64,000 nucleotides of DNA from Hyphomicrobiales bacterium. Its GTDB lineage: Bacteria; Pseudomonadota; Alphaproteobacteria; Rhizobiales; Aestuariivirgaceae. Position numbers and translations under genes: made by a program. The notes beneath the pieces were generated by a model. That model was not told the DNA's origin. It saw only the letters and a list, made by a program, of their open reading frames with translations, and made no database searches. The DNA lies in NCBI GenBank assembly GCA_043756645.1, contig JAYUQS010000131.1, positions 7,158 to 71,157 on the forward strand, in the 5' to 3' direction. Of the stretch, positions 1 to 53,741 are shown one piece after another (position 1 is the stretch's first letter; every line of letters starts with the position of its first letter).

Positions 1-328
1 TGCCGATGTAAACCTGAACGGGCCTGCCGCCGTGGTTTCCTTACCGACTTCGCAGTGGTAAGCTGGTGCCGCCGACCGTAAGACCACCACCTGGGCCGTG
101 GTTTCCTTACCGACTTCGCAGTGGTAAGCTGGCTTTTGCTTCGGCAACTACATCAACCACGCCGTGGTTTCCTTACCGACTTCGCAGTGGTAAGCTAAAA
201 CCCATGTGCCATGCCACGGCTACGGCGCCGTGGTTTCCTTACCGACTTCGCAGTGGTAAGCTTCCGAAAGTGTATTTCAATAAGCAAGTCGGGCCGTGGT
301 TTCCTTACCGACTTCGCAGTGGTAAGCT
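1..328 (+). CRISPR. Type II-C CRISPR array, leader/cas2-proximal end; continues beyond the left edge of the window
   Basis: Five identical 36-nt repeats GCCGTGGTTTCCTTACCGACTTCGCAGTGGTAAGCT at 29-64, 95-130, 161-196, 227-262 and 293-328. Unique 30-nt spacers at 65-94, 131-160, 197-226 and 263-292, plus a truncated spacer at 1-28. The + strand crRNA polarity is inferred from the tracrRNA anti-repeat and a TGnTAAGCT extended -10 at each repeat 3' end. Confidence 0.99.
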
Positions 329-384
329 CGCTCCCGTCCAAGACGCTGAAAACGTTAAAATATTCCCTCTTAATGGGAAGAGTT

Positions 385-723
385 TCAGAGCAGCACCAGC
401 TGATTTGTGGCCATTTTTTCACTCTTTTTTGATTCGCCAACGAGCATTTTCATGCGGGCGTATTGGCGTTCCGTGACCTGCAATGTGCGCACACTTCCCT
501 TGGCAGGCAAGCGTTTTGTGACGCGGCCAATATGTTTGTCCACTGCTTCCTCGCCCCGGCAGACGCGCGCATAAACTGAGAATTGCAGCATCATGTAGCC
601 ATCGTCTTTCAGGAAATTGCGAAAGCGGGTGGCGGTGCGGCGCTGGTCCTTGGTGCCAACGGGCAGATCGAAAAACACAAACACCCACATGTAACGCACC
701 TCACTGGCTTTCATCCCGCTCAC
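385..723 (-). CDS. cas2: CRISPR-associated endoribonuclease Cas2
   Basis: MWVFVFFDLP...FRNFLKDDGYMMLQFSVYAR Cas2 motifs; lies between cas1 and the array. Confidence 0.97.
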   Translation of the reverse strand: MSGMKASEVRYMWVFVFFDLPVGTKDQRRTATRFRNFLKDDGYMMLQFSVYARVCRGEEAVDKHIGRVTKRLPAKGSVRTLQVTERQYARMKMLVGESKKSEKMATNQLVLL

Positions 724-1607
724 TCCAAATGCGGTAACTCCAATAACAGCGGTGACGAACTTTCCATGGCCCGTACCAAAGACGCTGCCGCCCGTTCAGT
801 TGATATCAGTACACTGACGGTTTCAGCGCCGAACTTCACATCTTCATGCAAAATTCCGGCCAGTGCCCGGCGTTCCGAAATGACCAATTCACCAGATTTT
901 CGTGTGCCATTATCGGACAGCTTGAAAACCTTCGCATCGACCAGCGGGCGAAACGGCTCAAACAGATCATCAGCCAGATTGAAAGCATTTGCAGCGCTTT
1001 CATGAAACAATCCGAAGCAGGGCAACAAACCGGATGCAACAAGGGCGCGGGCGATGGCTGAGCGGATAATGGCATAGCCATAGTTTAGCATGGCGTTACG
1101 CAAATCAGTTTCATCGCTGCGGATGAAATCATCAAACAGGGTGGACCAATACTCCCGGGCAGCGCGGGCCTCGGTGTTTTCAGTGTCACCTGATGTGACA
1201 AATTTGGCGATTGCCGCAACCACTGTTCCGTCCCGACCACAAACGTCCAAACACGCAGCCTGATTTTCAATCTTGGCAATGACAAGAGATTGCCAAAGAC
1301 GCTTCTTCAATGGCAACGAAAGACCAATCTGCATCGCTGCCACCGCCGCTTGTCGATGATGGGTGTGGAAGGGAAGCGCTATGCCCGAAGGCGTGTGGCG
1401 TTCATCGGTAAAGATGATGGCCACGCCCATGTTCATACAAGCCGACACCAGTGACACGGAAAGTGTTGAATGATTGGAATCCAAAACAATCCAAGCCACA
1501 TCCTCCAGCGGCATGGCCACGTCACCCTCATCCTGCGCAACACAAAGCTGTTGGTCTTTATAACTCAGCCTTGCGGGTTTGGAGATATGCACACCTTTCC
1601 ACGCCAT
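720..1607 (-). CDS. cas1: Type II CRISPR-associated endonuclease Cas1
   Basis: 295 aa; EARAAREYW, NAMLNYGYAIIRS and LFHE..NAFNLADDLFEPFRP motifs; ATGA overlap with cas2. Confidence 0.97.
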   Translation of the reverse strand: MAWKGVHISKPARLSYKDQQLCVAQDEGDVAMPLEDVAWIVLDSNHSTLSVSLVSACMNMGVAIIFTDERHTPSGIALPFHTHHRQAAVAAMQIGLSLPLKKRLWQSLVIAKIENQAACLDVCGRDGTVVAAIAKFVTSGDTENTEARAAREYWSTLFDDFIRSDETDLRNAMLNYGYAIIRSAIARALVASGLLPCFGLFHESAANAFNLADDLFEPFRPLVDAKVFKLSDNGTRKSGELVISERRALAGILHEDVKFGAETVSVLISTERAAASLVRAMESSSPLLLELPHLE

Positions 1608-4600
1608 GTCCGCTCTTCGCTTTTGATTTCATTCAAACGACCTAGCCTGTCTACACTAAACTTTTTGATGGAATTCAAAGTTTTGCTCCCGACTTTCGAT
1701 GAGAACTCAAGATTGTTTTGGTGATAGGATACTCGCATTCCAGCGTCGTTTCTGTTCACATCTCTGAAGTATCCCGCGATGACTTCACCATCAGATTTCA
1801 CCATTTCAATGTAGGCCATTGGTTCGATGGGAAAGATGTATTCGTATGAGGAGTCCAATGAAGGCCACTCGTGTTCATCTTTATGTGCAAGCATAGCCTT
1901 TTTGGGCGGTAATTGGTCAGTTGCAATTTGGTGCGGGTAAACTGGAACCAAATAGTGGTTCCATTTTCCATTGGGCTTTTGTTTTCTGAACACATCCACC
2001 CGAGCCATGTCGCCCCGATCCACAGCACCCTTGCGTACAAATACTTCCGGCTTCCTTTTCGAAAGTAAAGCGACTTTCGAAATAGGATCACCTTTAGGTG
2101 ACAAGGGTGGTTTATCTCCAGGTTTACCCAGCAAAATCCAATTGTGAAGGGAGTCAATTACAGCGGCATTGCGCTCGGGGTCTTTGACATTTTCAAGATC
2201 TTTCTCCGTCAAATTTGACACTTGTTTGCGCTCAAAAACTTTGGCCTCACCGTTCACTTCGGAAATCGAACGGATTGTAGCATCATGTGCCTTTCCTCTC
2301 GCACGATGCCTCTCCGCACGTGAGACAAAAACACCCTCAACTTTCTTCATCACTTCATCCCTGAACCCCGGCCAAGGTTGGTCCAGTGCGCTGAAATCTC
2401 GCGGACTTCCAATTGCTTCCTGCTTTTGAAATGCCCGCGTTAAAACCTGCATCATGCCTTCAGTTGTCGCCGCAGTGATGACGGCATCCAGCGCATGGTG
2501 TCGATCATCGGGAATGCGTTGCCCTGTCTTTTCGTCCTTCTTCATCCACTGTACGCCCCAGCCACGCCGCAATCGATCTGTCAAAGCGCCCGGCCTCGTG
2601 AACACTTTGCGGTCTCGTTTGTCTTTTGGATAAAGCTGCTTCAAGCATTCCGCCAAAAGGCGGCAAGCCCAGCGGGTGTCATTCAAGTTTCGCGTTAGAA
2701 ATTTTCCCTCAACGCTTGCGGCATCCCTAATGGTATAGTTGCGACGTTTGTAGCCTTTGAGTGCGGGCAGGGCCTTTACGCGGGCTTCAAGCGCTTCCCA
2801 GTCAGTTTCGCTCTTGTCTTTGCTGAACCATTCAAAAGGTGTGCGCCCGCGCTTTTCCTGATTTGCCTTTGCTGTGCAAAGTGTTTTGTTGTTGAAGCTG
2901 TCATCGCCAAAGCGGCTCCAAGGCAGAATGTGATCGACCTGCACTGAATTGTCGGTTGCAACTACTTGGCTGGGGCTGATGTACTCATCGCTGTAGACAC
3001 ATTTTCCGTTTTGCTGCTTCCAAAGCTCAAAGCGCATAAGCTCATTGGCTGATGTGCAAGGTTGGCCAACCTTGTCTGCAAATTCCAAACGCAACTTGTC
3101 TTTTTCCTTGTTCCGCCTCTCAATGCCGTTTTCAATTTCACGACGTTCGTCAATACCTTTTCCAATGTCGCGGGCCAATTCGATGTGAATGGCGTCAGGG
3201 ATACCATGCACTTCAACAATGGCCTTCACCTGCTTGACGGCTTCTATCAGTGCTTTCCTGGCTGTGGGGCTGCCGACCGAGTGACGATTAATCCGTTCAC
3301 CGGAAAGAATTTTCTTCAAAGCTTCTTTGCCGTGAATACCAACATCGAAGGCATGACGCTCTCGGCTGTCGGTGTGATCATAGTTGCACTTCTTTGCGGC
3401 GTCAGAATAAACGAGGGTCTGCGCCAAATGCGGAATCATATTACGGCAAGCGAGTGATGATACATTCCCAGCGCCCGTGAATTTGATGAATGTATTTCCG
3501 TTTGTCGCATCCATGAGAGCTTCAATGACAACTGGCTCAAGTCCGATTTCATTCAAGCCGGAACGAATGTTTGTGAGGTCTGAGCGGAACGAAATAACCT
3601 CCGCAATGCGGTCCAGTTTTTCCGGTGTTTTGACGAGGGAATCCCAAGCTGCACCTTTGAGCAAGGTATGCAAGGTGCCGGCACCTTCTGCCGCGTTTCC
3701 GCTGCGTGCCACCGCATCAAGTTTTTCGTCTTCAAAGCGCACACTTGCAAAGCTTGCAGCATCCGAAAGTTTCCAGAGATTTCGGAGCGTGGTGTAAGAA
3801 ATCTTTTTTGTCGATCCGAAATTGCTTGTAGCTATTGCAAGTTCTTCGGCAGTAACGCGTCTCCGGTCGCGCCCTTCGCGGATTTCAAATGTGTTGAGCC
3901 GCGATAGAAAACGAAACAACTCAAATGAGTAACCGCGTTTTGATGTTCGCTTCTCCTTTGTTTCGAAAGCGCAGTTTGCCAATAGTTTTTCGCTATCTTG
4001 CAAACCGCGTTGGTGAAACGGTGCATTTTCTCGCGTTTCATCAAGATATTCGGCTTCCAGTTCGCGTGTCGCAAATTTTGAACCCAGTCGGCGTTGTGTG
4101 CTAAAGATTGCGCGGACTTCCGCGGCAAGGTCGGCACGTTGTGGGGTGCGGGAAAAGTCGCTTTCTTTATTACGTTTTCGGTCTGCAAAAGTGGGGTCAG
4201 TTGCAATCGTCTCGCCAAACGTGCGGCCTGCAAACTTTTCCTGTGTTTGCGCCATGGCCTTTTTCATTTTTGAACCTTCGACGTCATTTTCTCCTTGCGA
4301 TTTGGCATTGGATTTGAAGCCTCGATGACGGGCAATGTGTCCTAGTGCTATGGCCAGTTCTTTGGCGGTCAAAAGTTTCTGCGTCGCTTTGGCCCTTGCG
4401 TCCCAAGGATTGACGCCTTGAAATTTCAAAGCGTCTTGTTTCGCATCCGGCAACAAACCATGATGTTGCAAAAGTTTGCGCACACCATTCATACGTTGCC
4501 TCCTCCGCCGGATTATGCGCCGTTGCCCCCGGAATGTCCGCCTCGCTTCAGACTTGAGCTTTGGGCCGGATTGAGTTGCCTCTTCCGGCGAGTCAAACAT

Positions 4601-4708
4601 GCGGGTGCCGCAAGCGATGATTGATCCGGTCGTTTCCGCCGCATCATATTCCAACACCGCCCACCCAACACTCGCAATTCCGCAATCAAGTCCCAGAACC
4701 TTTGGCAT
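1565..4708 (-). CDS. cas9: Type II-C Cas9 (~1047 aa); catalytic motifs appear intact
   Basis: RuvC-I LGLDCGIASVGWA, Arg-rich bridge helix, RuvC-II IHIELAR, HNH VDHILPWSRFGDDSFNNKTLC, RuvC-III RHHALDA. No csn2 or cas4. Start placed at MPKVLG (4708) because the longer ORF-track start runs into the tracrRNA. Confidence 0.97.
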   Translation of the reverse strand: MPKVLGLDCGIASVGWAVLEYDAAETTGSIIACGTRMFDSPEEATQSGPKLKSEARRTFRGQRRIIRRRRQRMNGVRKLLQHHGLLPDAKQDALKFQGVNPWDARAKATQKLLTAKELAIALGHIARHRGFKSNAKSQGENDVEGSKMKKAMAQTQEKFAGRTFGETIATDPTFADRKRNKESDFSRTPQRADLAAEVRAIFSTQRRLGSKFATRELEAEYLDETRENAPFHQRGLQDSEKLLANCAFETKEKRTSKRGYSFELFRFLSRLNTFEIREGRDRRRVTAEELAIATSNFGSTKKISYTTLRNLWKLSDAASFASVRFEDEKLDAVARSGNAAEGAGTLHTLLKGAAWDSLVKTPEKLDRIAEVISFRSDLTNIRSGLNEIGLEPVVIEALMDATNGNTFIKFTGAGNVSSLACRNMIPHLAQTLVYSDAAKKCNYDHTDSRERHAFDVGIHGKEALKKILSGERINRHSVGSPTARKALIEAVKQVKAIVEVHGIPDAIHIELARDIGKGIDERREIENGIERRNKEKDKLRLEFADKVGQPCTSANELMRFELWKQQNGKCVYSDEYISPSQVVATDNSVQVDHILPWSRFGDDSFNNKTLCTAKANQEKRGRTPFEWFSKDKSETDWEALEARVKALPALKGYKRRNYTIRDAASVEGKFLTRNLNDTRWACRLLAECLKQLYPKDKRDRKVFTRPGALTDRLRRGWGVQWMKKDEKTGQRIPDDRHHALDAVITAATTEGMMQVLTRAFQKQEAIGSPRDFSALDQPWPGFRDEVMKKVEGVFVSRAERHRARGKAHDATIRSISEVNGEAKVFERKQVSNLTEKDLENVKDPERNAAVIDSLHNWILLGKPGDKPPLSPKGDPISKVALLSKRKPEVFVRKGAVDRGDMARVDVFRKQKPNGKWNHYLVPVYPHQIATDQLPPKKAMLAHKDEHEWPSLDSSYEYIFPIEPMAYIEMVKSDGEVIAGYFRDVNRNDAGMRVSYHQNNLEFSSKVGSKTLNSIKKFSVDRLGRLNEIKSEERTWRGKVCISPNPQG

Positions 4709-4771: not shown

Positions 4772-4890
4772 GCGAAGTCGGAAGGGAAACCACGGCAAGG
4801 ATTTGAACCCTTGTGGTTCCTAATCTGAAGGATTACCCCTGTTCGGGAAACCGGGCAGGGGGATTCCCCCGCCGCTCACTCAATTCATCG
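4772..4890 (+). ncRNA. tracrRNA: tracrRNA (3' end approximate)
   Basis: 4772-4796 GCGAAGTCGGAAGGGAAACCACGGC matches the repeat reverse complement at 23/25. It is followed by a nexus-like AAGG and hairpins, e.g. CCCTGTTCGG-GAAA-CCGGGCAGGG. Confidence 0.9.
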
Positions 4891-4953
4891 TCACCACGTC
4901 GTTTTCCTGATGGGCTCAAAACTGTTGTGGTGGCGGATTTCTGGAGTATTCCT

Positions 4954-4983
4954 GTTATAGGACTATTGACCGCGCGGTGTCAA
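4954..4983 (-). promoter_or_regulatory. Putative cas9-cas1-cas2 promoter
   Basis: Minus-strand TTGACA (4983-4978), 18 bp spacer, TATAAC (4959-4954). Confidence 0.6.
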
Positions 4984-5011
4984 GTGTTATTTTCCTATTG
5001 TGGAAAAACAT

Positions 5012-5044
5012 AAAAAGGCCGCAGCAGTTCCCTGCGCGGCCTTT
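5012..5044 (-). terminator. Rho-independent terminator of sciP, possibly bidirectional
   Basis: AAAGGCCGC...GCGGCCTTT hairpin with a T-run on the minus strand. Confidence 0.75.
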
Positions 5045-7563: not shown

Positions 7564-7640
7564 GGCGGGGTAGCTCAGTTGGTTAGAGCACGGGAATCAT
7601 AATCCTGGGGTCGGGGGTTCAACTCCCTCTCCCGCTACCA
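7564..7640 (+). tRNA. tRNA-Met (CAT, elongator), prophage attachment target
   Basis: GGCGGGGTAGCTCAGTTGGTTAGAGC...GGGAATCATAATCCTG...GGTTCAACTCCC...CCCGCTACCA cloverleaf with encoded CCA. Confidence 0.95.
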
Positions 7641-9171
7641 TCAAGAACCCACCCGTGGGGGTGAAGCTGGGCAGGCCGATGAGTTGGTTCAGGCGGCCTT
7701 TGATTTCGAATTTATAATCCGGATGCACGGTGATGCTGGCGATGAGCCCGCGCAATTCGTCGGCTTCTGCTGTGCCGGTAGCGAGTTCGCTTTGCAGATT
7801 GTGGATCTGTGCGATGTAACGATTGAGTGCCGTGGGGTGCAACGTCACCACATCGGCTGAAGGCTTGGCCGCAAGCGTGGCTTTCAATTGCCGTTCCTCG
7901 GATTCCAATTCTTTCACGCGGGGGCTGTGGCGCTCGGGGTCGATCTGGCCTTTGATCATCATCGTGACTGTGCGCTCGATCTCGGACGTGACGGAGGCCA
8001 ATCGCTTTTCGTTGTTGGCCTTGGATGATGCGCGCGTGTTGCTCAAGCGTCGGCGCTCGGCATTGTATTCGCGCACATAAGCCTCGATCAATTGGGGGTG
8101 TTGCAATTCCTGCCGCAGCACATCCAGTACGGCCATGGTGATGCGGTCCAGCTGGTACACACGGTTGTTGCTGCACGCGCCCGATTCCTGAAAGCGCGAA
8201 CAGCGAATGCGCGTCACGCCATTTTTCCGGTCGCGCACCACCAGTGAGCCGCCACAGCAATGGCATTTGAGCAGGCCTGACAGCAGATGTTTTGGCGCAC
8301 GCATCGTGTGGCCGCGCGGATCATAGACCCGGCGCTTGGCGGCAACAGCGTTCCACACATCCTCGTCGATGATGCGTAAGTGCGGCACTTGCGTTGACTG
8401 CCATTCCGATGCTGGATTGGCGCGGCTGATGCGGCGGCCTGTGTCCGGGTGCTTGAACATCTTCACTTTATTCCACACCAGTTGGCCGCGATAAAGCGCG
8501 TTGCCGAGGATGCCGTTGCCACGGTCTTTGCGTCCCTGAATCGTTGATGCGTTCCATCGGGTGCCCATGATGGGGGTGATGTTGTTTTCATTAAGTATTG
8601 CGGCGATTTTTCTGGGTGAATCACCAGACGCATAACAGGTAAAAATGCGGCGCACCACGTCGGCTTCGTGTTCGACAATCACAAGTTGGCCAGCCTCGCC
8701 TTTGACGGGGCGGTAACCATAGGCGCGGCCTCCTGCTGATTTGCCTGCGCGGATATTGCCCGCCATACCCCTGTGGGTTTTGTCGGCAAGGTCGGCCAGA
8801 AACAAAGTGCCCATCAGCCCGCGCACGGCAGCATTGATGGGGGTGGCCTTGCCGCCGTGCACTTCGATGATGGTCACGCCATCGAAACTCAGGCGCTTAT
8901 AAAGTGTGGCCATGTCAGCCTGGTCGCGCGATAAACGGTCAAGCGATTCAACCACCAGTGTTTTGAAACGGCCTTCAGCGGCATCACGCAACAGGCGCTG
9001 CAAGCCCAACCGTTGCACGGTGGATGCGCCCGACATGGCGCGGTCTTCGTAAGCGGCCACAACGGTCAAGCCTTCGCGCTGTGCATAGGTTTTGCAAAGG
9101 GCGAGTTGGTCCTCAATCGAGCGTTCGCTCTGCAGGTCGGAGGAATAGCGGGTGTAAATGGCGGCGGTCAT
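7597..9171 (-). CDS. Large serine recombinase (integrase)
   Basis: AIYTRYSSDLQ...SIEDQ catalytic Ser motif, LDRLSR, recombinase domain and CHCCG...C Zn-ribbon; 3' end overlaps the tRNA antisense. Confidence 0.95.
   Translation of the reverse strand: MTAAIYTRYSSDLQSERSIEDQLALCKTYAQREGLTVVAAYEDRAMSGASTVQRLGLQRLLRDAAEGRFKTLVVESLDRLSRDQADMATLYKRLSFDGVTIIEVHGGKATPINAAVRGLMGTLFLADLADKTHRGMAGNIRAGKSAGGRAYGYRPVKGEAGQLVIVEHEADVVRRIFTCYASGDSPRKIAAILNENNITPIMGTRWNASTIQGRKDRGNGILGNALYRGQLVWNKVKMFKHPDTGRRISRANPASEWQSTQVPHLRIIDEDVWNAVAAKRRVYDPRGHTMRAPKHLLSGLLKCHCCGGSLVVRDRKNGVTRIRCSRFQESGACSNNRVYQLDRITMAVLDVLRQELQHPQLIEAYVREYNAERRRLSNTRASSKANNEKRLASVTSEIERTVTMMIKGQIDPERHSPRVKELESEERQLKATLAAKPSADVVTLHPTALNRYIAQIHNLQSELATGTAEADELRGLIASITVHPDYKFEIKGRLNQLIGLPSFTPTGGFLMVAGEGVEPPTPGL
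7620..7641 (+). repeat. attL core (22-bp direct repeat)
   Basis: CAACTCCCTCTCCCGCTACCAT, identical to 53720-53741. Confidence 0.95.
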
Positions 9172-13909: not shown

Positions 13910-15828
13910 TGCGCGGCCTCCGCCTGTTGGTCACTTCCCTCTCCCGCCGCGCTTTGCGCGGCGCCCTCTCCCGCAAGGGGCGAGGGGAGGTATCGGGGGC
14001 TGCCCGGGCCTTCGTAACTTGGCGTGCGAAGTTGCGGGGGCAACCACGCTGTGGCCTCGATGCGCGGCAGGATGGCCGCCAACATGTCCGGCTTTTTGGC
14101 TTTCTTGATCGGCGCGTCGGGGTCGATTTCAACCGAGATCAACAGCAGCTGATAGAGTGACAGGCGGCCTAAGAATTCCGCATTCACAGCAAAACCTTCG
14201 GCCCGCATGTTGGGGTCGATCTGATTAACAACCCATTGCGCGTCGGTGTTTTTGAGGGCTTCGACTTCAAAGCTAGTGGCGGTGATCACGCCGTCGAGCA
14301 GAATGGTTTGTTCCGGCTCAAGCGTTTCCAGCACCGCCATCACTTCGGCAAAGGTTTCGCAGGTGTAGAACTTGTCCAACACCTGGGCGAACATGCCGTG
14401 TGTGCCGCTGGCGTCGTCGTGCATCTGATCGACATCCATTGCAAAGGGTGATGAGAACATTGACTTTGCGCTGCACACCCGTGCGGCCAGCCCCATGCGT
14501 TGCGCCATGGCGGGCTTCATGGTGAGTGCAAATTGCGTGGCCTTTTGTGCGGTGATGCGTAGAATTTCTTCGAGAGCATCGGAATAGCCCGCCTGTTCGG
14601 TGATAACAGGTGCCGGTGACGTGCCCTCATCCGTCTCGCTGCGCTCGCCACCTTCTCCCGCTGAAGCGGGTGAAGGCTTGGTTCTTTCGCCGGGCTTCAG
14701 GCGGCCTTTGGAGATTTCGACTTTGTTGCGCAGTAAAATCAACACGCCGAGGCTTGAGCGTTGTTCCACGGTGAAGCTGGTGGAGTTGTAGCTGTCGGTG
14801 ATGTCGTACTGGTTGGGAATCAGCTTGTATTCGATCTCTAACAATCTGTCCGCTTGTTCATCGGTGATGTCGTCGTTGTCTATTTCGTCAAGGGCATTGT
14901 ATTCCGCTTCCAACGCCTTCAACGTTTCAACCTCTGCATCACGCGCCTGTTGTTCCTCGGCACCGAACGCACGTTTTGCAGCGGGGGCTTGGCGTTCATA
15001 TTTACTGTCGTCATCGGCGTGTTTTTCATCCAGCACTTTCACCCATGCCCAGCCATCGTTTTTCAAATCGGCCACGGTTTGATCCAGCTTTTCAACGAAC
15101 AGGCGTTTCACCAAAGCGGCGTCACGCAGATAGGCATTGTCGGCAAACAAGTCTTCATCCACCGCACCACCGGCTGCGCGATACGCGTCGATGCCGACAA
15201 AAGCAGCTTCCATCGCATCGGCTGACATCGATGTGTCGGTGAGGGCGCGGCGAATGTGCCATTCCTGTAGTGAGCGGGTTTTAACAGCATCCTCAAACAC
15301 CATGAGCTGGCGTTCGGATGAGTCCGTCAAGGTGAAGGCTTGTGCCGTGTCCAGATCCATGTCGCTGTTGCGCAACGCCGTGATCAGGGGTGCTGGCAAT
15401 GAGCCGATGGCCAAACGTTGGCGCACCCGGCGTTCGGGCTGGGCGTAATGCGAAGCAATGTCTTTGACCGACATGCCAGCCTTGCCCAGGTTGTAAAACG
15501 CCACAGCCTCATCAGCGGGGGATAAATCTTCACGGGCCACAAAGGAGTCGAGCGCCATTTGCAATGCGGCTTCGTCATCCACCTCAAAGCAGTCACATGG
15601 AATGTCGTCGTTCCATTCCAGCACATCAAGGGCGCGTTTGCGGCGTCCGCCATTGATGACCTCATAGAAATCATGTTGGCCCGGTTGCTGGCGCACCCAC
15701 AACGCTTCCTTAAAACCCTTGTCACGGATGATCGAGACCAACACCGTCACATCATCGTCCGACGCATGGCGCGGGTTGATGGCGGGGTTAAGAATGAGGT
15801 GTTCACGTTTGACAAAAATGCGTTGCAT
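13906..15828 (-). CDS. ParB/RepB/Spo0J-family protein
   Basis: INPR...YEVINGGRRKRAL ParB domain, REDLSPADEA and HTH; AAGGAAA RBS before MQRIFV. Confidence 0.85.
   Translation of the reverse strand: MQRIFVKREHLILNPAINPRHASDDDVTVLVSIIRDKGFKEALWVRQQPGQHDFYEVINGGRRKRALDVLEWNDDIPCDCFEVDDEAALQMALDSFVAREDLSPADEAVAFYNLGKAGMSVKDIASHYAQPERRVRQRLAIGSLPAPLITALRNSDMDLDTAQAFTLTDSSERQLMVFEDAVKTRSLQEWHIRRALTDTSMSADAMEAAFVGIDAYRAAGGAVDEDLFADNAYLRDAALVKRLFVEKLDQTVADLKNDGWAWVKVLDEKHADDDSKYERQAPAAKRAFGAEEQQARDAEVETLKALEAEYNALDEIDNDDITDEQADRLLEIEYKLIPNQYDITDSYNSTSFTVEQRSSLGVLILLRNKVEISKGRLKPGERTKPSPASAGEGGERSETDEGTSPAPVITEQAGYSDALEEILRITAQKATQFALTMKPAMAQRMGLAARVCSAKSMFSSPFAMDVDQMHDDASGTHGMFAQVLDKFYTCETFAEVMAVLETLEPEQTILLDGVITATSFEVEALKNTDAQWVVNQIDPNMRAEGFAVNAEFLGRLSLYQLLLISVEIDPDAPIKKAKKPDMLAAILPRIEATAWLPPQLRTPSYEGPGSPRYLPSPLAGEGAAQSAAGEGSDQQAEAAQ
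13938..13990. repeat. REP-like palindromic element in the ParB 3' coding end
   Basis: CCCTCTCCCGCCGCGCTTTGCGCGGCGCCCTCTCCCGCAAGGGGCGAGGGG; encodes PSPLAGEG-type peptide. A related hairpin lies at 14651-14676. Confidence 0.55.
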
Positions 15829-21350: not shown

Positions 21351-22067
21351 GTGATGGCTTTTGTAAAATTGATCACGGTCAAGGTGGTTGGCATAACGGG
21401 GGCGTTTCGGTTTAGTAAAAAAGGCAAGGGCATGTTCTTTGTGTCAATGCCATCGGTCATCGCCGGTAAAGCGTGGGATGCGTTTGGGCGCTGCGACATT
21501 GCTGTGGGCGAGGGCGATGACGCTGGCCTGATTCAGATCGCCGCGCATGCTGCGGGGATGTTCAAAATCGGGCGCTTGAAAACCGCACTTGTGTTTCGCG
21601 TGCCACCACAGATCGCATGGGTAGGGGGGGCGTTTGATCCCGTTGCACTTGAAACCGTGGAAAATAAAAATGGTGCGTTGGTGTTGCGGCTGCCGAAACA
21701 ATTGTTCGAAGCACTGACGTTTAATCAGGATGGAAAGCCAACGCCGCATCTGCTGCGTGCGCGTCCTGAGGATCGGATTGTTCCGCCTGCTGCAAAGCCG
21801 GGGGAGCGTCCAAAGCTCTCGATCATCGGCACCACGGTGGAGCTGGGTAAGGCCCGCGTCAAGCTGTCGATGCCGCAATTTAAATTATTTTCAGCCTTGT
21901 GGAAGGCGTGGGGGGAATCCGTGCGCAGCACCGCCCTGCAGGTGGCGATGGGTAATGATGATCACAATCTCGTCAAGGTGTTGGCAACACTCGGCAGGGA
22001 TGTCGAACCGCTTGGCTTGATGATCGAGGTTGTGAGCGGCGGTTACAAACTGATGCTGAAAGCTTAA
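21351..22067 (+). CDS. Hypothetical protein with C-terminal winged-helix (OmpR-C-like) domain
   Basis: VKLSMPQFKLFSALWKAWGESV...GGYKL C-terminus. Confidence 0.55.
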   Translation: MMAFVKLITVKVVGITGAFRFSKKGKGMFFVSMPSVIAGKAWDAFGRCDIAVGEGDDAGLIQIAAHAAGMFKIGRLKTALVFRVPPQIAWVGGAFDPVALETVENKNGALVLRLPKQLFEALTFNQDGKPTPHLLRARPEDRIVPPAAKPGERPKLSIIGTTVELGKARVKLSMPQFKLFSALWKAWGESVRSTALQVAMGNDDHNLVKVLATLGRDVEPLGLMIEVVSGGYKLMLKA

Positions 22068-22904: not shown

Positions 22905-23176
22905 TGCAAGCTCCTACCCGTGAAACCTCGTTTGAGATGATCATCAGCAACCCGCTGTTCAAGCGCGGTTATGAACATGGCTGGTCGGGCGAGGAACCCA
23001 TGAACGACCGGGGTTGGATGCCGCATGAAGAAGAGGCTTACGAACGCGGTCGCCAATTCGCCGCCTGGCTGATCGGTGAACGCGAACAGCGCGTGGCGCT
23101 GACACGCGGATATCTGGTGCACCCACGGGCGGAAACCCTGTTGATGCGCGCGATGCATCTGGGCGAGGTGCGGTGA
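22904..23176 (+). CDS. Hypothetical phage protein (gene A of the duplicated block)
   Basis: 90 aa; its 3' third is repeated at 23830-23933. Confidence 0.65.
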   Translation: MQAPTRETSFEMIISNPLFKRGYEHGWSGEEPMNDRGWMPHEEEAYERGRQFAAWLIGEREQRVALTRGYLVHPRAETLLMRAMHLGEVR

Positions 23177-23520
23177 TGAAGGTGACTACCGAAAAACAGT
23201 TGTCGGCGCATGATGTGTTGAAGATGCGTTCTGACAGTCAGCGGGCGGTTTTGGATGCGATGCATTTTGTGCGAGCGCGTCACAATATTTCCGGTGCGTC
23301 TGTGCATTTGTTGTTTCTCTCGCAAATAGTGAATGTTTTCCAGTTGGTTAACCCGTTGGCAACGCAGGAGTTGTTGCGGTGCATGGTGGAAATTCACGCA
23401 GTGCGAGAAAACAAAGACGCGCTCGATACCGTCATTTTAGAATTCGACGCGGTCCAACGCTGGATGTTGCAGTCCTTCGACCTGTTTTATGCACAGCCTG
23501 AAAACGGGGGGCATGCATGA
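23173..23520 (+). CDS. Hypothetical phage protein, allele B1
   Basis: Ends FDLFYAQPENGGHA; paralog of 23927-24274. Confidence 0.7.
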   Translation: MMKVTTEKQLSAHDVLKMRSDSQRAVLDAMHFVRARHNISGASVHLLFLSQIVNVFQLVNPLATQELLRCMVEIHAVRENKDALDTVILEFDAVQRWMLQSFDLFYAQPENGGHA

Positions 23521-23930
23521 CCTTCGACCCCGCTATGGATGATTGGGTGAACCGTGCCCGCGCCGCTGATATCTGGTCGGTGCTGGACCGTTTGCCTGTA
23601 CCGCATACGCTGAAGCTGCGCGGCCACAAGACGGTGGGGCCTTGCCCGGCCTGTGGCGGGCATGACCGCTTCTCGATGGACCGGCGCAAGGGCATTTTCT
23701 TTTGCCGCCGCTCGGCCACCGGGGGCGATGCCATTGCCCTTGTGCAATATCTGACGGGGGCGGATTTCTTCGGTGCTGTTGAAACCATCACCGGCGAGGC
23801 ACCGCCACGCGGTGAACACGGTATTAAAAGTGAATGCGAACAGCGCGTGGCGCTGACACGCGGATATCTGGTGCACCCACGGGCGGAAACCCTGTTGATG
23901 CGCGCGATGCATCTGGGCGAGGTGCGGTGA
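23517..23930 (+). pseudogene. Chimeric ORF: primase Zn-finger N-terminus fused in frame to the gene-A C-terminus
   Basis: MTFDPAMD...GPCPACGGHDRF...PPRGEHGIK followed by EQRVALTRGYLVHPRAETLLMRAMHLGEVR; produced by the duplication junction near 23829. Confidence 0.75.
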
Positions 23931-24274
23931 TGAGGGTTTTGACAGAAAAGGATCTCGGCGCTGACGCTGTTGAGGCATTGAACAAAGAGTGTGTCGATAT
24001 TCTGCTGTCCGCCATGCGGCACATGCAAAGGCGTCACGATGTCAGTGTGCCGTCTGCTCATTTGATGTTCATTTCACGACTGATCGGGTTTGTGCAGTCG
24101 ATTGATCCGGTGTCAACCGACGCCATGTTGCGGGCTTTCACGGCCATTCATGCGGCATCTGAAGATCTGGTGGAACGTGAAGCGGCCAATGCTGAACTCG
24201 GCAAAGCGCAAGACAAACTGTTGCTGGCCTTCGACCTGTTTTATGCGCGGCCTGAAAACGGGGGGCATGCGTGA
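23927..24274 (+). CDS. Hypothetical phage protein, allele B2
   Basis: Ends FDLFYARPENGGHA; same length as B1 but strongly diverged internally. Confidence 0.7.
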   Translation: MMRVLTEKDLGADAVEALNKECVDILLSAMRHMQRRHDVSVPSAHLMFISRLIGFVQSIDPVSTDAMLRAFTAIHAASEDLVEREAANAELGKAQDKLLLAFDLFYARPENGGHA

Positions 24275-25473
24275 GTTTTGATCCCGCCATGGATGAGTGG
24301 GTGAACCGCGCCCGCACCGCTGATATCTGGTCGGTGCTGGAGCGTTTGCCGGTGTCACACGCACTTAAACTGCGCGGCCAGAAAACCGTGGGGCCTTGCC
24401 CGTCTTGTGGCGGTAAGGATCGCTTCTCGATGGACCGGCGCAAGGGCATTTTCTATTGCCGCCGCTCGGACAAGGGCGGCGATGTGATTGCGCTTGTGCA
24501 ATATCTGATGGGGGCTGATTTTCTCGGTGCCGTCGAAACCATCACCGGCGAAGCACCGCCACGCGGTGAACACGGTATCAAACAGGATCGCGCCCTCATC
24601 GAACAGCGCCGCCTGGAACGTCTGGTCGACCAGCAGCGCCGTGATGCTGGGGCTGTGGATTATCGCCAACGCGAAATCGACAAGGCTGCCAAAATCTGGC
24701 GTGAGTCCTTGCCGCTCACAGGTTCGCCGGCTGAATCATATTTGGCATTGCGTGGGTTGGTGGCTCCTGCGGGTGCGCGGCTGCGCTGCCATCCCGCATT
24801 GAAATTCTGGCATTGGAGTGAAGCTGAAAAGCAATTCCGCGTGCTGCATGTGGGGCCCGCCATGGTGGCGCGGATGGATGACAATGCCAACCGTTTTTGC
24901 GGGGCGCATTGCACGTATATCGATTTGTCAAAGCCCAAAGGCAAAGCCGAAATCGTCGATCCTGAAAGCGGTGAAGTGTTGGCTGCCAAAAAGATGCGGG
25001 GGTCTAAAAAGGGTTGTCACATTCACCTCAGCGGCGATCCTGCAACGGCCACGGCGCTCAAGATCGGTGAGGGCAATGAAACCGTGTTGTCAGTGCATAA
25101 TGAAATGCTGCTGGCGGGCAGGGATATTTCAAAGCAGTTGTTCTGGACCTCATGTGACCTTGGCAACCTCGGTGGGCCGGGCGTGGCAACCGTCAAACAC
25201 CCGACTTTGACCCGCACCGATATCAAGGGCCGTGTGCGGGCTTTGAAGGTGCCGGGCCCCGATCCGGCTTGGCCTCAAGGTGAGGGGATATTGATGCCGC
25301 CTGATAATGTCCGCCACATCACCATTCTGGGCGACGGTGACAGCGACCGTTTCTCAACCGAACAACATGTGAAACGCGCAGGCTCCCGTTGGGCCAAACC
25401 GGATCGTGTCATCGCAGCCGCCTGGGCCCCGGTGGGCCTTGATTTCAACAATCTGAAAATGGGGCAAGCGTGA
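24271..25473 (+). CDS. DNA primase (Zn-finger plus Toprim)
   Basis: GPCPSCGGKDRF Zn finger; KIGEGNET and ILGDGD Toprim motifs. Confidence 0.85.
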   Translation: MSFDPAMDEWVNRARTADIWSVLERLPVSHALKLRGQKTVGPCPSCGGKDRFSMDRRKGIFYCRRSDKGGDVIALVQYLMGADFLGAVETITGEAPPRGEHGIKQDRALIEQRRLERLVDQQRRDAGAVDYRQREIDKAAKIWRESLPLTGSPAESYLALRGLVAPAGARLRCHPALKFWHWSEAEKQFRVLHVGPAMVARMDDNANRFCGAHCTYIDLSKPKGKAEIVDPESGEVLAAKKMRGSKKGCHIHLSGDPATATALKIGEGNETVLSVHNEMLLAGRDISKQLFWTSCDLGNLGGPGVATVKHPTLTRTDIKGRVRALKVPGPDPAWPQGEGILMPPDNVRHITILGDGDSDRFSTEQHVKRAGSRWAKPDRVIAAAWAPVGLDFNNLKMGQA

Positions 25474-27254
25474 CTGGCGACACCCCAAACCCCATTCTCG
25501 ATGCACTTGATCAGGCGCAGCCAGTCAATGCTGAACCCTCCGCACCTCCGCACCATCACGAGGACATCGAAGACCCGGGCGAACAGGAAGCGCCATCCGA
25601 TATCAATTGGGATTTGCTGCGGCTTTGTGTCAATGAATTGCAAAACGATATCGGCAATTCATGGCGGCTGCGGCATCGCTTTGGTGGTAATTTAATCCAC
25701 ATTCAAAACGTCGGTTTTTTCGCCTGGGATGGAAAACGTTGGGCTGAAGACACCGATCTCCGGCAAGCAAAACCCATGTGCCATGCCACGGCTACGGCCA
25801 TCGCGCTTGAGGCGATTTTGATTGTGCCGTCGGACAAGGAAAGTGCGGCAATCGAATTGGGCGAAGCTGCGGCCGCCGCCGTGCAAGATGCGCACAAGCG
25901 CATGCGCGAATTGGCGTTGCAGGATTTAAAACCGAAAGACCGGAAACAGCGGGCCGACGAAATCCGCATGGAGATTGATGCGGCACGCGATGAAATTGCC
26001 GATGGCCGCAAAGCGCAAGCCGCTGTGCAGGCACGCCGCGCCAATCGCCGTCGCTTCTCCATCTCATCGGGCAATGCCGGAAAGCTGAACGGCATGCTCG
26101 ACCAGGCGCTACCCTATTTGTCACGCCCCATTCTCGACATGGACGTTGATGCTTATGCCCTCAATGTCGGCAATGGGACGCTGCGCTTTACCGAGCGGGC
26201 TGATATTGCCGGGCGGTGGCAGGTTGATGTGAAACCCCATGCCCCCACCGACATGATCACCAAACTGGCGGATGTGGACTATAACCCGCAAGCCAAGGCT
26301 CCGGTGTTTCATAAATTCCTGAGTGAGGTTTTGCCCAACGAAAACGTGCGGGGCTTCCTGCAGCGGTATTTTGGCTATAGCCTGACAGCGCTGACCTCGG
26401 AACAGGTGTTTGCCATTTTGCATGGAGAGGGGCGCAACGGCAAATCCACGCTGGTCGATATTATGGCCAAAATCTTGTCGGATTATTCAACCTCGATTCC
26501 CATCGCCACACTGGTCAACGACAATCGTGCGGGCAAGGGCAGTGAGGCCACGCCGGATCTGGCGCGATTGCCCGGTGCACGTCTGGTGCGCTCGGCCGAA
26601 CCGCGTGAGGGCTTGTCATTCGATGAGAGTCTGATCAAGGGTTTGATTTCGGGTGAGCCTTTGCCGGTGCGGCGCTTGAACCAAGATTTCATTGATATTT
26701 ACCCCACCTTCAAATTGATCATTTCCGTCAATCGCAAGCCCACCATCAAGGGCAATGACGATGGCATCTGGCGGCGGGTGCGGCTGGTGCCGTTTGAGAT
26801 ACAGGTCGAGGTGGGCAAGGAAGACAAAAGCCTGCCGGAAAAGCTGTGGGATGAACGCTCCGGCATTCTGAATTGGATGATTGAGGGGGCGCTTGATTAT
26901 TTCGAGCGCGGCGGCCTCGATGCGCCGGAAGCGGTGTTGATGGCAACGCAGGAATATCGTGACGAAAGCGATCTGGTGGGCAGCTTCGTGCGCGCCGCCC
27001 TCGACATCACCAACGAGAGTTACGACCAAATGGAAACGGGAGCGCTTTACAACGCCTTCATTGCCTATGCCAAGCGGCAAGGTGTGCCCCTGATGAGCGG
27101 CACCACCTTTGCCCGCCGCATGCCAAGGACCGCCAGCCAATTCGGCATCCTCAAGGGAAAGTCATCACTCACGGTTTATTCCGGCATCAAACTGCGGCCA
27201 GAGTTCGAGATGCATCACGCGTCGCCCTCACACACCCACGAGGATGAGCGATGA
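25470..27254 (+). CDS. P4-family phage primase/helicase (D5-like SF3 helicase); contains the CRISPR protospacer
   Basis: HGEGRNGKST Walker A, PDLARLPGARLV, GIWRRVRLVPF. Confidence 0.92.
   Translation: MTGDTPNPILDALDQAQPVNAEPSAPPHHHEDIEDPGEQEAPSDINWDLLRLCVNELQNDIGNSWRLRHRFGGNLIHIQNVGFFAWDGKRWAEDTDLRQAKPMCHATATAIALEAILIVPSDKESAAIELGEAAAAAVQDAHKRMRELALQDLKPKDRKQRADEIRMEIDAARDEIADGRKAQAAVQARRANRRRFSISSGNAGKLNGMLDQALPYLSRPILDMDVDAYALNVGNGTLRFTERADIAGRWQVDVKPHAPTDMITKLADVDYNPQAKAPVFHKFLSEVLPNENVRGFLQRYFGYSLTALTSEQVFAILHGEGRNGKSTLVDIMAKILSDYSTSIPIATLVNDNRAGKGSEATPDLARLPGARLVRSAEPREGLSFDESLIKGLISGEPLPVRRLNQDFIDIYPTFKLIISVNRKPTIKGNDDGIWRRVRLVPFEIQVEVGKEDKSLPEKLWDERSGILNWMIEGALDYFERGGLDAPEAVLMATQEYRDESDLVGSFVRAALDITNESYDQMETGALYNAFIAYAKRQGVPLMSGTTFARRMPRTASQFGILKGKSSLTVYSGIKLRPEFEMHHASPSHTHEDER
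25769..25798 (+). other. Protospacer of spacer 197-226
   Basis: AAAACCCATGTGCCATGCCACGGCTACGGC, 30/30 identical; 3' flank CATCGCGC. Confidence 0.99.
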
Positions 27255-52544: not shown

Positions 52545-52573
52545 TTGACACCTGCATCATGATGATGCATCTT
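52545..52573 (+). promoter_or_regulatory. Promoter of the candidate acr-aca operon with palindromic operator
   Basis: TTGACA (52545-52550), 17 bp spacer, CATCTT (52568-52573); perfect inverted repeat TGCATCAT-G-ATGATGCA at 52553-52569. Confidence 0.8.
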
Positions 52574-52625
52574 AAATCCACGAACAGCAGCAATCGTGCA
52601 GCGGTTCCCTCCGATGGAGACAAAA

Positions 52626-52823
52626 ATGACTTACGCCACAGAAAAACAAATCTGGTTTATCAAGAAGCTGGCTGTTGAAATCGGCTTTTCTGGCAAGATT
52701 GAAGCGCTTGACGCTTACGGTTTCGTGCCCGGCCAACATATGTCGATTTCAGACGCTTCACTGGTGATCGACTGGTTGAAGTCGGGTGAAGCCGCCCGCT
52801 TTCTCGTCGCTCAAGCCGCTTAA
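52626..52823 (+). CDS. Candidate anti-CRISPR protein 1 (65 aa)
   Basis: GGAGA RBS; first gene upstream of the aca2-like gene; no recognised family. Confidence 0.6.
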   Translation: MTYATEKQIWFIKKLAVEIGFSGKIEALDAYGFVPGQHMSISDASLVIDWLKSGEAARFLVAQAA

Positions 52824-52834
52824 GGATTTTGAAA

Positions 52835-53065
52835 ATGAACATCGAACTCATCACTTATAACGACTGTCGTGAGCCTCAGGCCCACATCGCCCGAACCTGC
52901 AACTGCACCACAGATGGTTTTGTTCCGAACTTCACTTTTGAAGCTGAAAAAATGGGAGTTGAAGCCGTTACAGTTTTTAAATCCAAGCGGCGTATGAAAC
53001 GTTTTTTGGCGGGAAGGGGTTATAAAACCTTCCGTGAAATCAGCCATACTGTATATTCGGTATGA
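52835..53065 (+). CDS. Candidate anti-CRISPR protein 2 (76 aa)
   Basis: TAAGGA RBS; AT-rich; stop overlaps the aca-like start (ATGA). Confidence 0.6.
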   Translation: MNIELITYNDCREPQAHIARTCNCTTDGFVPNFTFEAEKMGVEAVTVFKSKRRMKRFLAGRGYKTFREISHTVYSV

Positions 53066-53433
53066 CCCCCGCTGAATTTGACACCCGCCGCCGTCTTCTT
53101 GGTCTTTCGATTGAAGAAACGGCGGAGTGGTGTGGAGCCAACCGCGTGACGGTGCAGCGCTGGACAAAAGGCCAATCGCGCATTGACCCACGCGCCATTG
53201 ACAGGCTTGAAGAACTGGAAGACGGCATGGCAGCAGCAGTAGAGCGAGCGGTGGCCACGGTCAAAAATCACAACGGCCCCGTGCCGCTCTTCCGTTATCG
53301 CAGTCAAGCAGCGGTTGACGCGGCACCTCACGCGTCGGGAATGCCTCTGGGTGCTCACGCCATTCTAATCGGTTGGACCGCCGATGCCTTGGAAGATGCA
53401 GGGCATGCCGTTGAAATCGTCTGGGGTGATTAA
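53062..53433 (+). CDS. Aca2-like HTH regulator (DUF1870/YdiL-type)
   Basis: MTPAEFDTRRRLLGLSIEETAEWCG...VQRWTKGQSRI HTH, plus C-terminal PLFRYRS...H...GW segment, matching my recollection of the Aca2 two-part architecture; 123 aa. Confidence 0.75.
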   Translation: MTPAEFDTRRRLLGLSIEETAEWCGANRVTVQRWTKGQSRIDPRAIDRLEELEDGMAAAVERAVATVKNHNGPVPLFRYRSQAAVDAAPHASGMPLGAHAILIGWTADALEDAGHAVEIVWGD

Positions 53434-53719: not shown

Positions 53720-53741
53720 CAACTCCCTCTCCCGCTACCAT
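53720..53741 (+). repeat. attR core (tRNA-Met 3' fragment)
   Basis: Identical to 7620-7641. Confidence 0.95.

Follow-up and report, generated by a model that had tools for sequence, protein, structure and literature searches.

Self-targeting CRISPR-Cas9 spacers and a candidate anti-CRISPR cassette in the prophage of an uncultured alphaproteobacterium

The locus and its closest described counterparts

The subject of this analysis is a 64,000-nucleotide stretch of DNA (the window, C131:7158-71157) from the metagenome-assembled genome (MAG) of an uncultured alphaproteobacterium whose relatives are Hyphomicrobiales-type MAGs. The genome comprises 264 contigs (2.89 Mb), and the contig in question, C131, measures 72.8 kb. 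It carries a type II-C CRISPR system close to a resident prophage, and one spacer of the CRISPR array is identical to a segment of that prophage. With respect to the CRISPR-Cas9 system itself, the closest described counterpart is the type II-C system of Neisseria meningitidis (Nme). The two have in common a cas9-cas1-cas2 operon with its array and neither csn2 nor cas4, a similar 36-nt repeat, the AAGG that follows the anti-repeat of the trans-activating CRISPR RNA (tracrRNA) and a transcription of the CRISPR RNAs (crRNAs) that converges on cas2; the best relatives of our Cas9 in the PDB are Nme1Cas9 and Nme2Cas9. Unlike the meningococcal arrangement, the tracrRNA gene here lies directly upstream of cas9 and on the opposite strand. 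Moreover, our Cas9 is distant from NmeCas9 (phmmer E about 1e-109), and its likely protospacer-adjacent motif (PAM), N4GCG, is a different one.

The anti-CRISPR (Acr) proteins AcrIIC1-3 were reportedly found by Pawluk et al. in 2016 on integrated mobile elements of N. meningitidis, by way of their aca (anti-CRISPR-associated) genes. Two more, AcrIIC4 and AcrIIC5, are treated in PMC6282205. As in the meningococcal elements, the candidate inhibitor genes of our prophage are situated upstream of an aca-type helix-turn-helix (HTH) gene in an integrated element; unlike the meningococcal AcrIIC proteins, they are without detectable similarity to any solved Acr, and their host is an alphaproteobacterium. 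For Listeria, Rauch et al. are said to have described in 2017 the AcrIIA proteins, with self-targeting spacers against resident prophages serving as the markers of anti-CRISPR genes. The present locus resembles the Listeria cases in its perfect spacer-prophage match, its apparently intact Cas9 and its acr-aca-like prophage operon. It differs from them in that a single prophage is matched by an older spacer, mismatched in the seed, as well as by a newer and perfect one, and in being known from MAG sequence alone. Pipelines that search for anti-CRISPRs by self-targeting and by guilt by association have been described (PMC6739104, PMC7319584), and the subject is reviewed in PMC6990116.

A further counterpart is the acrIF8-aca2 operon of the Pectobacterium phage ZF40 with its Aca2 repressor (7vjo, 7vjq and 7b5j; PMC8633003, PMC8434428). 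The regulator of our cassette is predicted to have the full-length fold of ZF40 Aca2, an HTH plus a C-terminal dimerisation domain (template modelling (TM) score 0.71-0.76). The two operons are also alike in the inverted repeat between the -35 and -10 boxes, in a regulator gene that comes last and is translationally coupled to a small upstream open reading frame (ORF), and in a short leader that would place a stem over the ribosome-binding site. What sets them apart is the low identity to ZF40 Aca2 (only 21-22%, with our regulator just under the cut-off of PF08965), the operator sequence and the cargo genes, which are unrelated, and the CRISPR type that is presumed to be the target. The present case belongs to a well-known class, that of lysogens whose Cas9 looks intact and which nevertheless carry a spacer against themselves; its inhibitor genes are possibly new.

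Self-targeting spacers, the CRISPR-Cas9 system and its PAM

The array (Table 1) begins 367 nt ahead of the window, and every one of its spacers is 30 nt long. The ninth, AAAACCCATGTGCCATGCCACGGCTACGGC, occurs exactly twice in the window, in the array and again at 25769-25798, both times on the + strand and at a distance of 25,572 nt, and no match to this 30-mer turned up in 100 shuffles. The self-targeting match, first noticed in a sequence-only reading of the window, is thus confirmed. That reading placed the target in a P4-family primase/helicase gene, which is correct for the helicase part (domains D5_N and DUF5906); the primase, a Zn-ribbon/DUF7146 protein, is encoded by a separate upstream gene (24271-25473). 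When the ten spacers were compared to the whole genome, only one further match appeared. Spacer 2 (C131:6892-6921, outside the window) agrees at 29 of 30 positions with 21459-21488, on the same strand, in an ORF that has no family match. The single mismatch is at position 29 (G in the prophage, A in the spacer); it falls in the seed, 2 nt from the PAM, and alters a Gly/Glu codon (...DAFE in the spacer, ...DAFG in the prophage).

Is the system capable of acting on these targets? Nothing else lies between cas9 and the array, the operon consists of cas9, cas1 and cas2 only, as it does in the relatives, and all the cas ORFs are full length and as long as their counterparts there. The best PDB matches of Cas9 reach an E value of 6e-109, and in the alignment to NmeCas9 the motifs GLDCGIASVGWA, VDHILPWSRFGDDSFNNKTL and DDRHHALDAV keep the RuvC-I Asp, the HNH DH...N and the RuvC-III HHALD. 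The anti-repeat, just upstream of cas9, is complementary to nucleotides 1-24 of the repeat at 22 of 24 positions, and the segment downstream of it folds with -52.6 kcal/mol (z -2.7); the tracrRNA has no Rfam family match. The initial impression that the Cas9 motifs, tracrRNA, cas1 and cas2 are intact is borne out by the Pfam matches and by these comparisons, and to judge from its sequence the system looks complete and of the Neisseria type II-C.

The crRNA sense is the + strand, as follows from the orientation of the anti-repeat and the tracrRNA; the array repeat resembles that of Nme, which supports the same assignment. With the tracrRNA and the crRNAs read from the + strand toward cas2, the 3' end of the spacer is PAM-proximal, and the PAM is therefore to be sought 3' of the + strand matches. 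The repeat ends 3' in TGGTAAGCT, an extended -10-like box, at what we take to be the place of the extended -10 box TGCTACAAT in the Nme repeat. This resembles a set of repeat-embedded promoters, from which crRNAs may initiate inside the spacers. In II-C arrays of the Nme type, transcription starts within each spacer and new spacers are inserted at the last repeat in the sense of transcription (PMC12080349, PMC12477760). By this published polarity, the last repeat here would be the one on the cas2 side; spacer 9 would be the second newest, because that is where new II-C spacers enter, and spacer 2 the second oldest. The earlier suggestion that spacer 9, the second from the cas2 end, is probably recent agrees well with it. 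The array has no spacer in common with related arrays, so our own data give no polarity.

The related arrays offer a few observations of their own. In the JGI strains among the relatives, the repeat departs from ours by a single base. On the cas-distal side, terminator-like hairpins are the only common feature of the flanks: one or two that are GC-rich precede every related array (the flanks of L002, L005, L026, L027 and L041 that correspond to C131:6700-6789 here), which fits the published idea that terminators block read-through into the first, spacer-less repeat of a II-C array. One array (L002, 14359-14612) has irregular spacers of 33, 42 and 32 nt, and the 42-nt spacer holds a partial repeat. 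Another, with 59 spacers on the minus strand (L042), has two pairs, 47/48 and 44/53, whose members differ by one base, as if a single protospacer had been re-acquired from an escape variant. In the latter locus a HicB-like pair is inserted upstream of cas9.

At the level of the species, the relatives in JGI metagenomes (DNA 80-83% identical, gene order the same, tRNA-Met site empty) carry the CRISPR island in some cases and lack it in others. In eight JGI contigs from related species (L041-L048) the place of the island has a DUF1153 gene on one side and a Na/Ca-exchanger gene on the other; four of these loci have the island and four do not, and the tRNA-Met site is empty in every one that extends to it. 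In our own contig, the stretch that separates the DUF1153 gene from the tracrRNA tail holds a short dispersed repeat (4884-5012) with copies on >10 other contigs.

Considering the 11 identical repeats, the full-length cas ORFs, the catalytic residues and the tracrRNA, it seems unlikely that the system, while intact in sequence, is ineffective in vivo (poorly expressed, repressed or endowed with a weak II-C nuclease), so that the lysogen needs no inhibitor at all. The seed mismatch against the old spacer would also look like past selection by an active system, and the long arrays of the relatives, with their near-duplicate spacers, are a sign of ongoing activity in the clade. Such a dormant state would nevertheless account for the outcome of a simple sigma-70 scan around the CRISPR locus, which found nothing above shuffles. 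It would be in keeping, too, with a -10-like box that reads TAAGCT here as against TAAGAT in some relatives, and with an island that is dispensable, being absent from several related species.

The PAM was sought in the two self-targets. Their 3' flanks are CATCGCGCTTGA for spacer 9 and CGCTGCGACATT for spacer 2, that is, CATC-GCG-C and CGCT-GCG-A, with N4GCG in both; positions 5-7 are where II-C PAMs usually lie. The chance of a random prophage site matching the triplet at these positions is 0.03, and that of any three-match run within the eight flank positions is 0.11. Two weaker flanks also read N4GCG: CGGCGCGC, next to a site from a different genus (L008) that spacer 8 matches at 25 of 30 positions, and ATGCGCGG, next to window 24213, which spacer 52 of L042 matches with five mismatches. 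These flanks are suggestive of N4GCG as the likely PAM of this Cas9.

The route to a PAM proposed in the sequence-only reading, the matching of all array spacers to phage databases, yielded no protospacers. None of the ten spacers has a match among the INPHARED phages or the PLSDB plasmids, and in IMG/VR there was none for spacer 10 at full length or for the 3' 22-mers of spacers 10, 7, 6 and 4. A search for the repeat in JGI metagenome scans found nothing, and the 241 family genomes searched gave diverged partial matches only. Nor did the ~85 spacers of seven related arrays contain a close match to this genome, the one match being that at window 24213. A wobble pattern for spacer 8 hit a single AT-rich phage in IMG/VR and was dismissed as chance.

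The PAMs of relatives were likewise set aside as not transferable, because the PAM-interacting domain (Cas9 880-1047; window 1565-2071) is only 35-66% identical in same-genus relatives (L002, L005, L026, L027, L028, L041 and L042 were compared); the first 879 residues are 60-75% identical. To judge from these alignments, it looks like domain swapping of the kind known in Neisseria. In one of the relatives (L028, from genome G050), the DNA of cas1, cas2 and the leader is 86% identical, yet the PAM-interacting domain only 35%.

Neither collections nor relatives thus provide a PAM by which to judge the flank CATCGCGC, and the sequence-only reading, with one protospacer at hand, saw a real alternative in PAM escape: the flank would be non-permissive for this Cas9 and the match harmless. 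We now consider this quite improbable. Type II acquisition selects PAM-flanked DNA (PMC12477760) and the protospacer is unchanged at all 30 positions, for which reasons a dead PAM is unlikely. With GCG at positions 5-7 common to both targets and the two weaker flanks in agreement, any escape mutation would need to be located elsewhere than in the GCG.

The prophage and the cassette at its right end

Two direct copies of the 22-nt sequence CAACTCCCTCTCCCGCTACCAT, at 7620-7641 and 53720-53741, bound the prophage (46.1 kb); this sequence is the 3' end of a tRNA-Met gene. The integration site is 2.8 kb from cas9 and ~7 kb from the spacer, and the GC content of the prophage is 57% versus 51% in the host flanks. 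Its genes encode a large serine recombinase, a CI-like repressor, a single-stranded DNA-binding protein (SSB), a ParB-like protein, the primase and the D5_N/DUF5906 helicase, followed in our inventory by a GpA-type terminase, a portal, a capsid protein, a tape measure protein and a lysozyme; many other ORFs have no family assignment. Its relatives are few: the terminase has only one in IMG/VR (60% identical), and none was found for the helicase in the JGI metagenome scans. A second short dispersed repeat, at 14619-14675 in the ParB-like gene, has copies on >10 host contigs, which is odd for phage DNA.

A lysogen and its self-targeting spacer have to be shown to belong together, and a mixture could simulate them if some cells were lysogens without spacer 9, others were immune non-lysogens, and the assembler had threaded one path through both. 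One contig of 72.8 kb, however, holds the array, the cas genes, attL, the entire prophage and attR, and no alternative contig of the MAG represents an empty attB, a different array or a further copy of the prophage. In the Logan assembly of SRR22198344, moreover, a contig leads out of the prophage, through attR and on into the host flank with no break, where an abundant empty site would be expected to cause one, and majority paths at both sites would require majorities that overlap. Host and phage contigs co-occur in SRR23617209. Two Logan phage contigs, each from a different run, were read over 12 kb apiece and do not differ there from the window, and this holds for the protospacer and its flank as well. 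The host contig L051 ends within the tRNA gene and is uninformative on attB versus attL. This indirect evidence favours one genotype rather than two populations.

What speaks for a mixture is the fragmentation of the MAG into its 264 contigs and a 754-bp tandem duplication in the prophage (23076-24583) with ends that are 87-98% identical and diverged middles. Within this duplication, at window 24425, the Logan contigs from two runs both break, a hint at repeat or strain variation. We regard the mixture as unlikely, and give it this much weight because the CRISPR side was not recovered from the Logan assemblies.

The last 900 nt of the prophage ahead of attR constitute a separate unit, after the lysis genes and a terminator-like hairpin. 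A perfect inverted repeat, TGCATCAT-G-ATGATGCA (8-1-8), lies at 52553-52569 between the -35 and -10 boxes; two small ORFs follow, and the stop of the second, ORF-B, overlaps the start of the regulator gene. The regulator scores 22.4 bits against Pfam PF08965 (Aca2_YdiL, DUF1870), below the gathering score of 23.8 bits. Several of its homologues (52-65% identity) carry PF08965, and one of them is named DUF1870. A profile of the 41-member regulator family finds Aca2 7ezy first (E 1.9e-6), then 8w35, 7vjo, 1s4k and 7b5j, the matches to solved Aca2 proteins and YdiL spanning E 1.9e-6 to 1.3e-4. The AlphaFold2 (AF2) model has a mean predicted local distance difference test (pLDDT) score of 96.2, and its ten best Foldseek matches are Aca2, YdiL and SO3848 (TM 0.70-0.86 over ~120 of 123 residues); for Aca2 and YdiL specifically, TM is 0.70-0.76 over the full length. 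The model shows the regulator to have an Aca2 fold, with an N-terminal HTH and the Aca2-type C-terminal dimerisation domain. A toxin-antitoxin reading, suggested by weak MbcA/Xre matches, was rejected because of the full-length Aca2/YdiL match, the position of the HTH gene at the end and the variation of the cargo between loci.

This variation is best seen by comparison with other cassettes. For ORF-A there is a single homologue, 80% identical, at which the promoter, operator and leader are nearly unchanged and the next gene is different; a distant motif relative occurs in L035. ORF-B has no relative among 5.8 billion clustered proteins, and when 1.8 billion representatives were searched in full with HMMER a single one emerged (48-51% identity). 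That relative belongs to the same three-gene cassette, which in an unrelated prophage has the integrase on one side and the lysis genes on the other. A JGI phage contig, L037, has the same promoter, operator and leader and a regulator that is 80% identical, with an unrelated 120-aa first gene. Related inverted repeats occur in L034 and L037, and the cargo ORFs that lie upstream of the regulator bear no relation to one another across the loci; those of the related cassettes have no match to a solved structure, to Pfam or to PHROG. Small and variable cargo genes at the end of a prophage, combined with a regulator and an operator that are conserved, are what defines the architecture of an acr-aca operon. 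The sequence-only reading held that a perfect chromosomal target implies that an Acr is at work, that the PAM is dead, that the system is silent or that the assembly is an artefact. That logic is sound, and its Acr option, until then a general one, can now be attached to a concrete candidate locus, 52545-53433.

The leader of the cassette deserves separate mention. About 50 nt long (..CAGCAGCAATNGTGCAGCGGTTCCCTCCGATGGAGAC; 52570-52625 here, ~700-762 in L034 and ~2960-3013 in L037), it is more conserved than the coding sequence that follows and is retained even where the first cargo gene has been replaced. It can form the stems CACGA/TCGTG and CTCC-GAT-GGAG, the latter over the ribosome-binding site, and on these grounds it may be an RNA-level control element.

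The architecture does not disclose the defence system against which the cargo is directed; only the self-targeting connects it to Cas9. In L037 (289-4424) the related cassette has an ArdC-like/MPTase fusion gene on one side and, on the other, an Acb2/Tad1-hairpin gene together with a GapR gene, a region that looks like an anti-defence island. Such ArdC-like and Acb2/Tad1-like neighbours target other systems, and many ORFs of our prophage are without family. It is accordingly conceivable that Cas9 is inhibited by another prophage gene (for example, one of the small unannotated lysogeny-arm genes, 9.3-20.5 kb) or by a host factor, the Aca2 cassette serving some other anti-defence role. We think this rather unlikely, as 52545-53433 is the sole operon of the prophage with the canonical acr-aca architecture.

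Table 1. Positions of the features discussed in the text (window coordinates, except where preceded by C131)
Feature	Position	Strand	Remarks
Type II-C CRISPR array	C131:6790-7485; window part 1..328	+	11 identical 36-nt repeats GCCGTGGTTTCCTTACCGACTTCGCAGTGGTAAGCT, 10 spacers
Spacer 9 of 10	197..226	+	30/30 match to prophage; one spacer away from cas2-proximal repeat
cas2-proximal flank, presumed leader	329..384	+	Motif CG..CAAGA..TGAAAA, partly conserved in relatives
cas2	385..723	-	PF09827, E 7.6e-17
cas1	720..1607	-	PF01867, E 4.7e-31
cas9 (1047 aa), Nme-like type II-C	1565..4708	-	Pfam match; catalytic motifs intact
tracrRNA	4773..4870	+	Anti-repeat 4773-4796, then AAGG and stem-loops; 3' end approximate
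tRNA-Met with attL core	7564..7641; core 7620-7641	+	att repeat CAACTCCCTCTCCCGCTACCAT
Large serine recombinase (prophage integrase)	7597..9171	-	Resolvase, Recombinase and Zn_ribbon_recom domains
Protospacer of spacer 2 with 3' flank CGCTGCGA	21459..21496	+	29/30; in ORF 21351-22067
D5_N/DUF5906 helicase gene, target of spacer 9	25470..27254	+	Domain matches
Protospacer of spacer 9 with 3' flank CATCGCGC	25769..25806	+	30/30; in helicase gene
Promoter-like region and 5' untranslated region (5'UTR)	52545..52625	+	TTGACA 52545-52550; other cassettes also keep the 5'UTR
ORF-A (65 aa), Acr candidate 1	52626..52823	+	Near-orphan
ORF-B (76 aa), Acr candidate 2	52835..53065	+	Near-orphan; GC 45%
Aca2/YdiL-fold HTH regulator (123 aa)	53062..53433	+	Fold and family profile
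attR core, right end of prophage	53720..53741	+	Junction also in an independent Logan contig

Survival of the lysogen

How can a lysogen with a perfect chromosomal target survive? In view of the evidence above, the likeliest answer, with about an even chance of being right, is that this is a case of tolerated self-targeting, with Cas9 blocked by a prophage anti-CRISPR protein of a new family. The best candidates for this protein would be ORF-A and ORF-B, which we presume to be expressed from an autoregulated operon that ends in the Aca2-fold repressor. The two spacers also suggest an order of events. The phage would first have passed the old spacer 2, by virtue of the seed mismatch, an Acr or both, and then have lysogenised; spacer 9 would have been captured later, from the prophage in its resident or replicating state, at a time when interference was blocked, and for this reason would not have been selected against. 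Self-derived spacers are reported to accumulate when Cas9 interference is off (PMC12477760, PMC4335292), and in Neisseria a crippled or unloaded Cas9 is reported to boost adaptation (PMC12477760). A more daring version, which we advance only tentatively, is that ORF-A and/or ORF-B represent one or two new families of type II-C inhibitors, and that the inhibitor stopped interference and left acquisition running, or even stimulated it, so that spacer 9 was captured thereby.

Several points weigh against an anti-CRISPR of this kind, at different levels. With respect to the genotype, the evidence that a single cell holds both the prophage and spacer 9 consists of one assembled contig out of the 264, and look-ups of the exact Cas1, Cas2, Cas9 and integrase products in the Logan assemblies yielded nothing. 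The assignment of the PAM rests on two direct flanks plus the two weaker ones; the 5' flanks of the two self-targets match at about as many positions by chance, and a diverged homologue of the spacer 1 target (L007, 26/30) has the non-fitting flank TCGGGGAA. As for the candidates, neither ORF-A nor ORF-B has a match to a known Acr, a PDB chain or a PHROG (against all PDB chains phmmer gave none for ORF-B and one chance match, E 0.78, for ORF-A), ORF-A found nothing in Pfam, and the single-sequence AF2 model of ORF-B is unusable (pLDDT 44). Finally, the cargo could act on another defence system, and Aca2-like regulators are also found outside acr loci, in diverse contexts (PMC8434428).

Self-targeting spacers beside an intact Cas9 have been the most productive pointer to new anti-CRISPR proteins, which serve as off-switches for genome editing, and here the search space is very small: two orphan genes, of 65 and 76 codons' worth of amino acids, in an Aca2-controlled cassette. 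Their presumed target is a compact, Nme-like Cas9 of 1047 aa that may read an N4GCG PAM. The concept is a known one; the candidate genes and the Cas9, with its possible N4GCG, are new and cheap to test. Should the assembly be a strain mixture, or the system silent, the case would be an ordinary one. If instead the history outlined above is right, the old, seed-mismatched spacer and the new, perfect one form a rare natural record of escape, lysogeny and then self-acquisition. And if ORF-A and ORF-B do turn out to be new inhibitor families, the self-targeting spacer would be the footprint of Acr activity and not of a failed immunisation.

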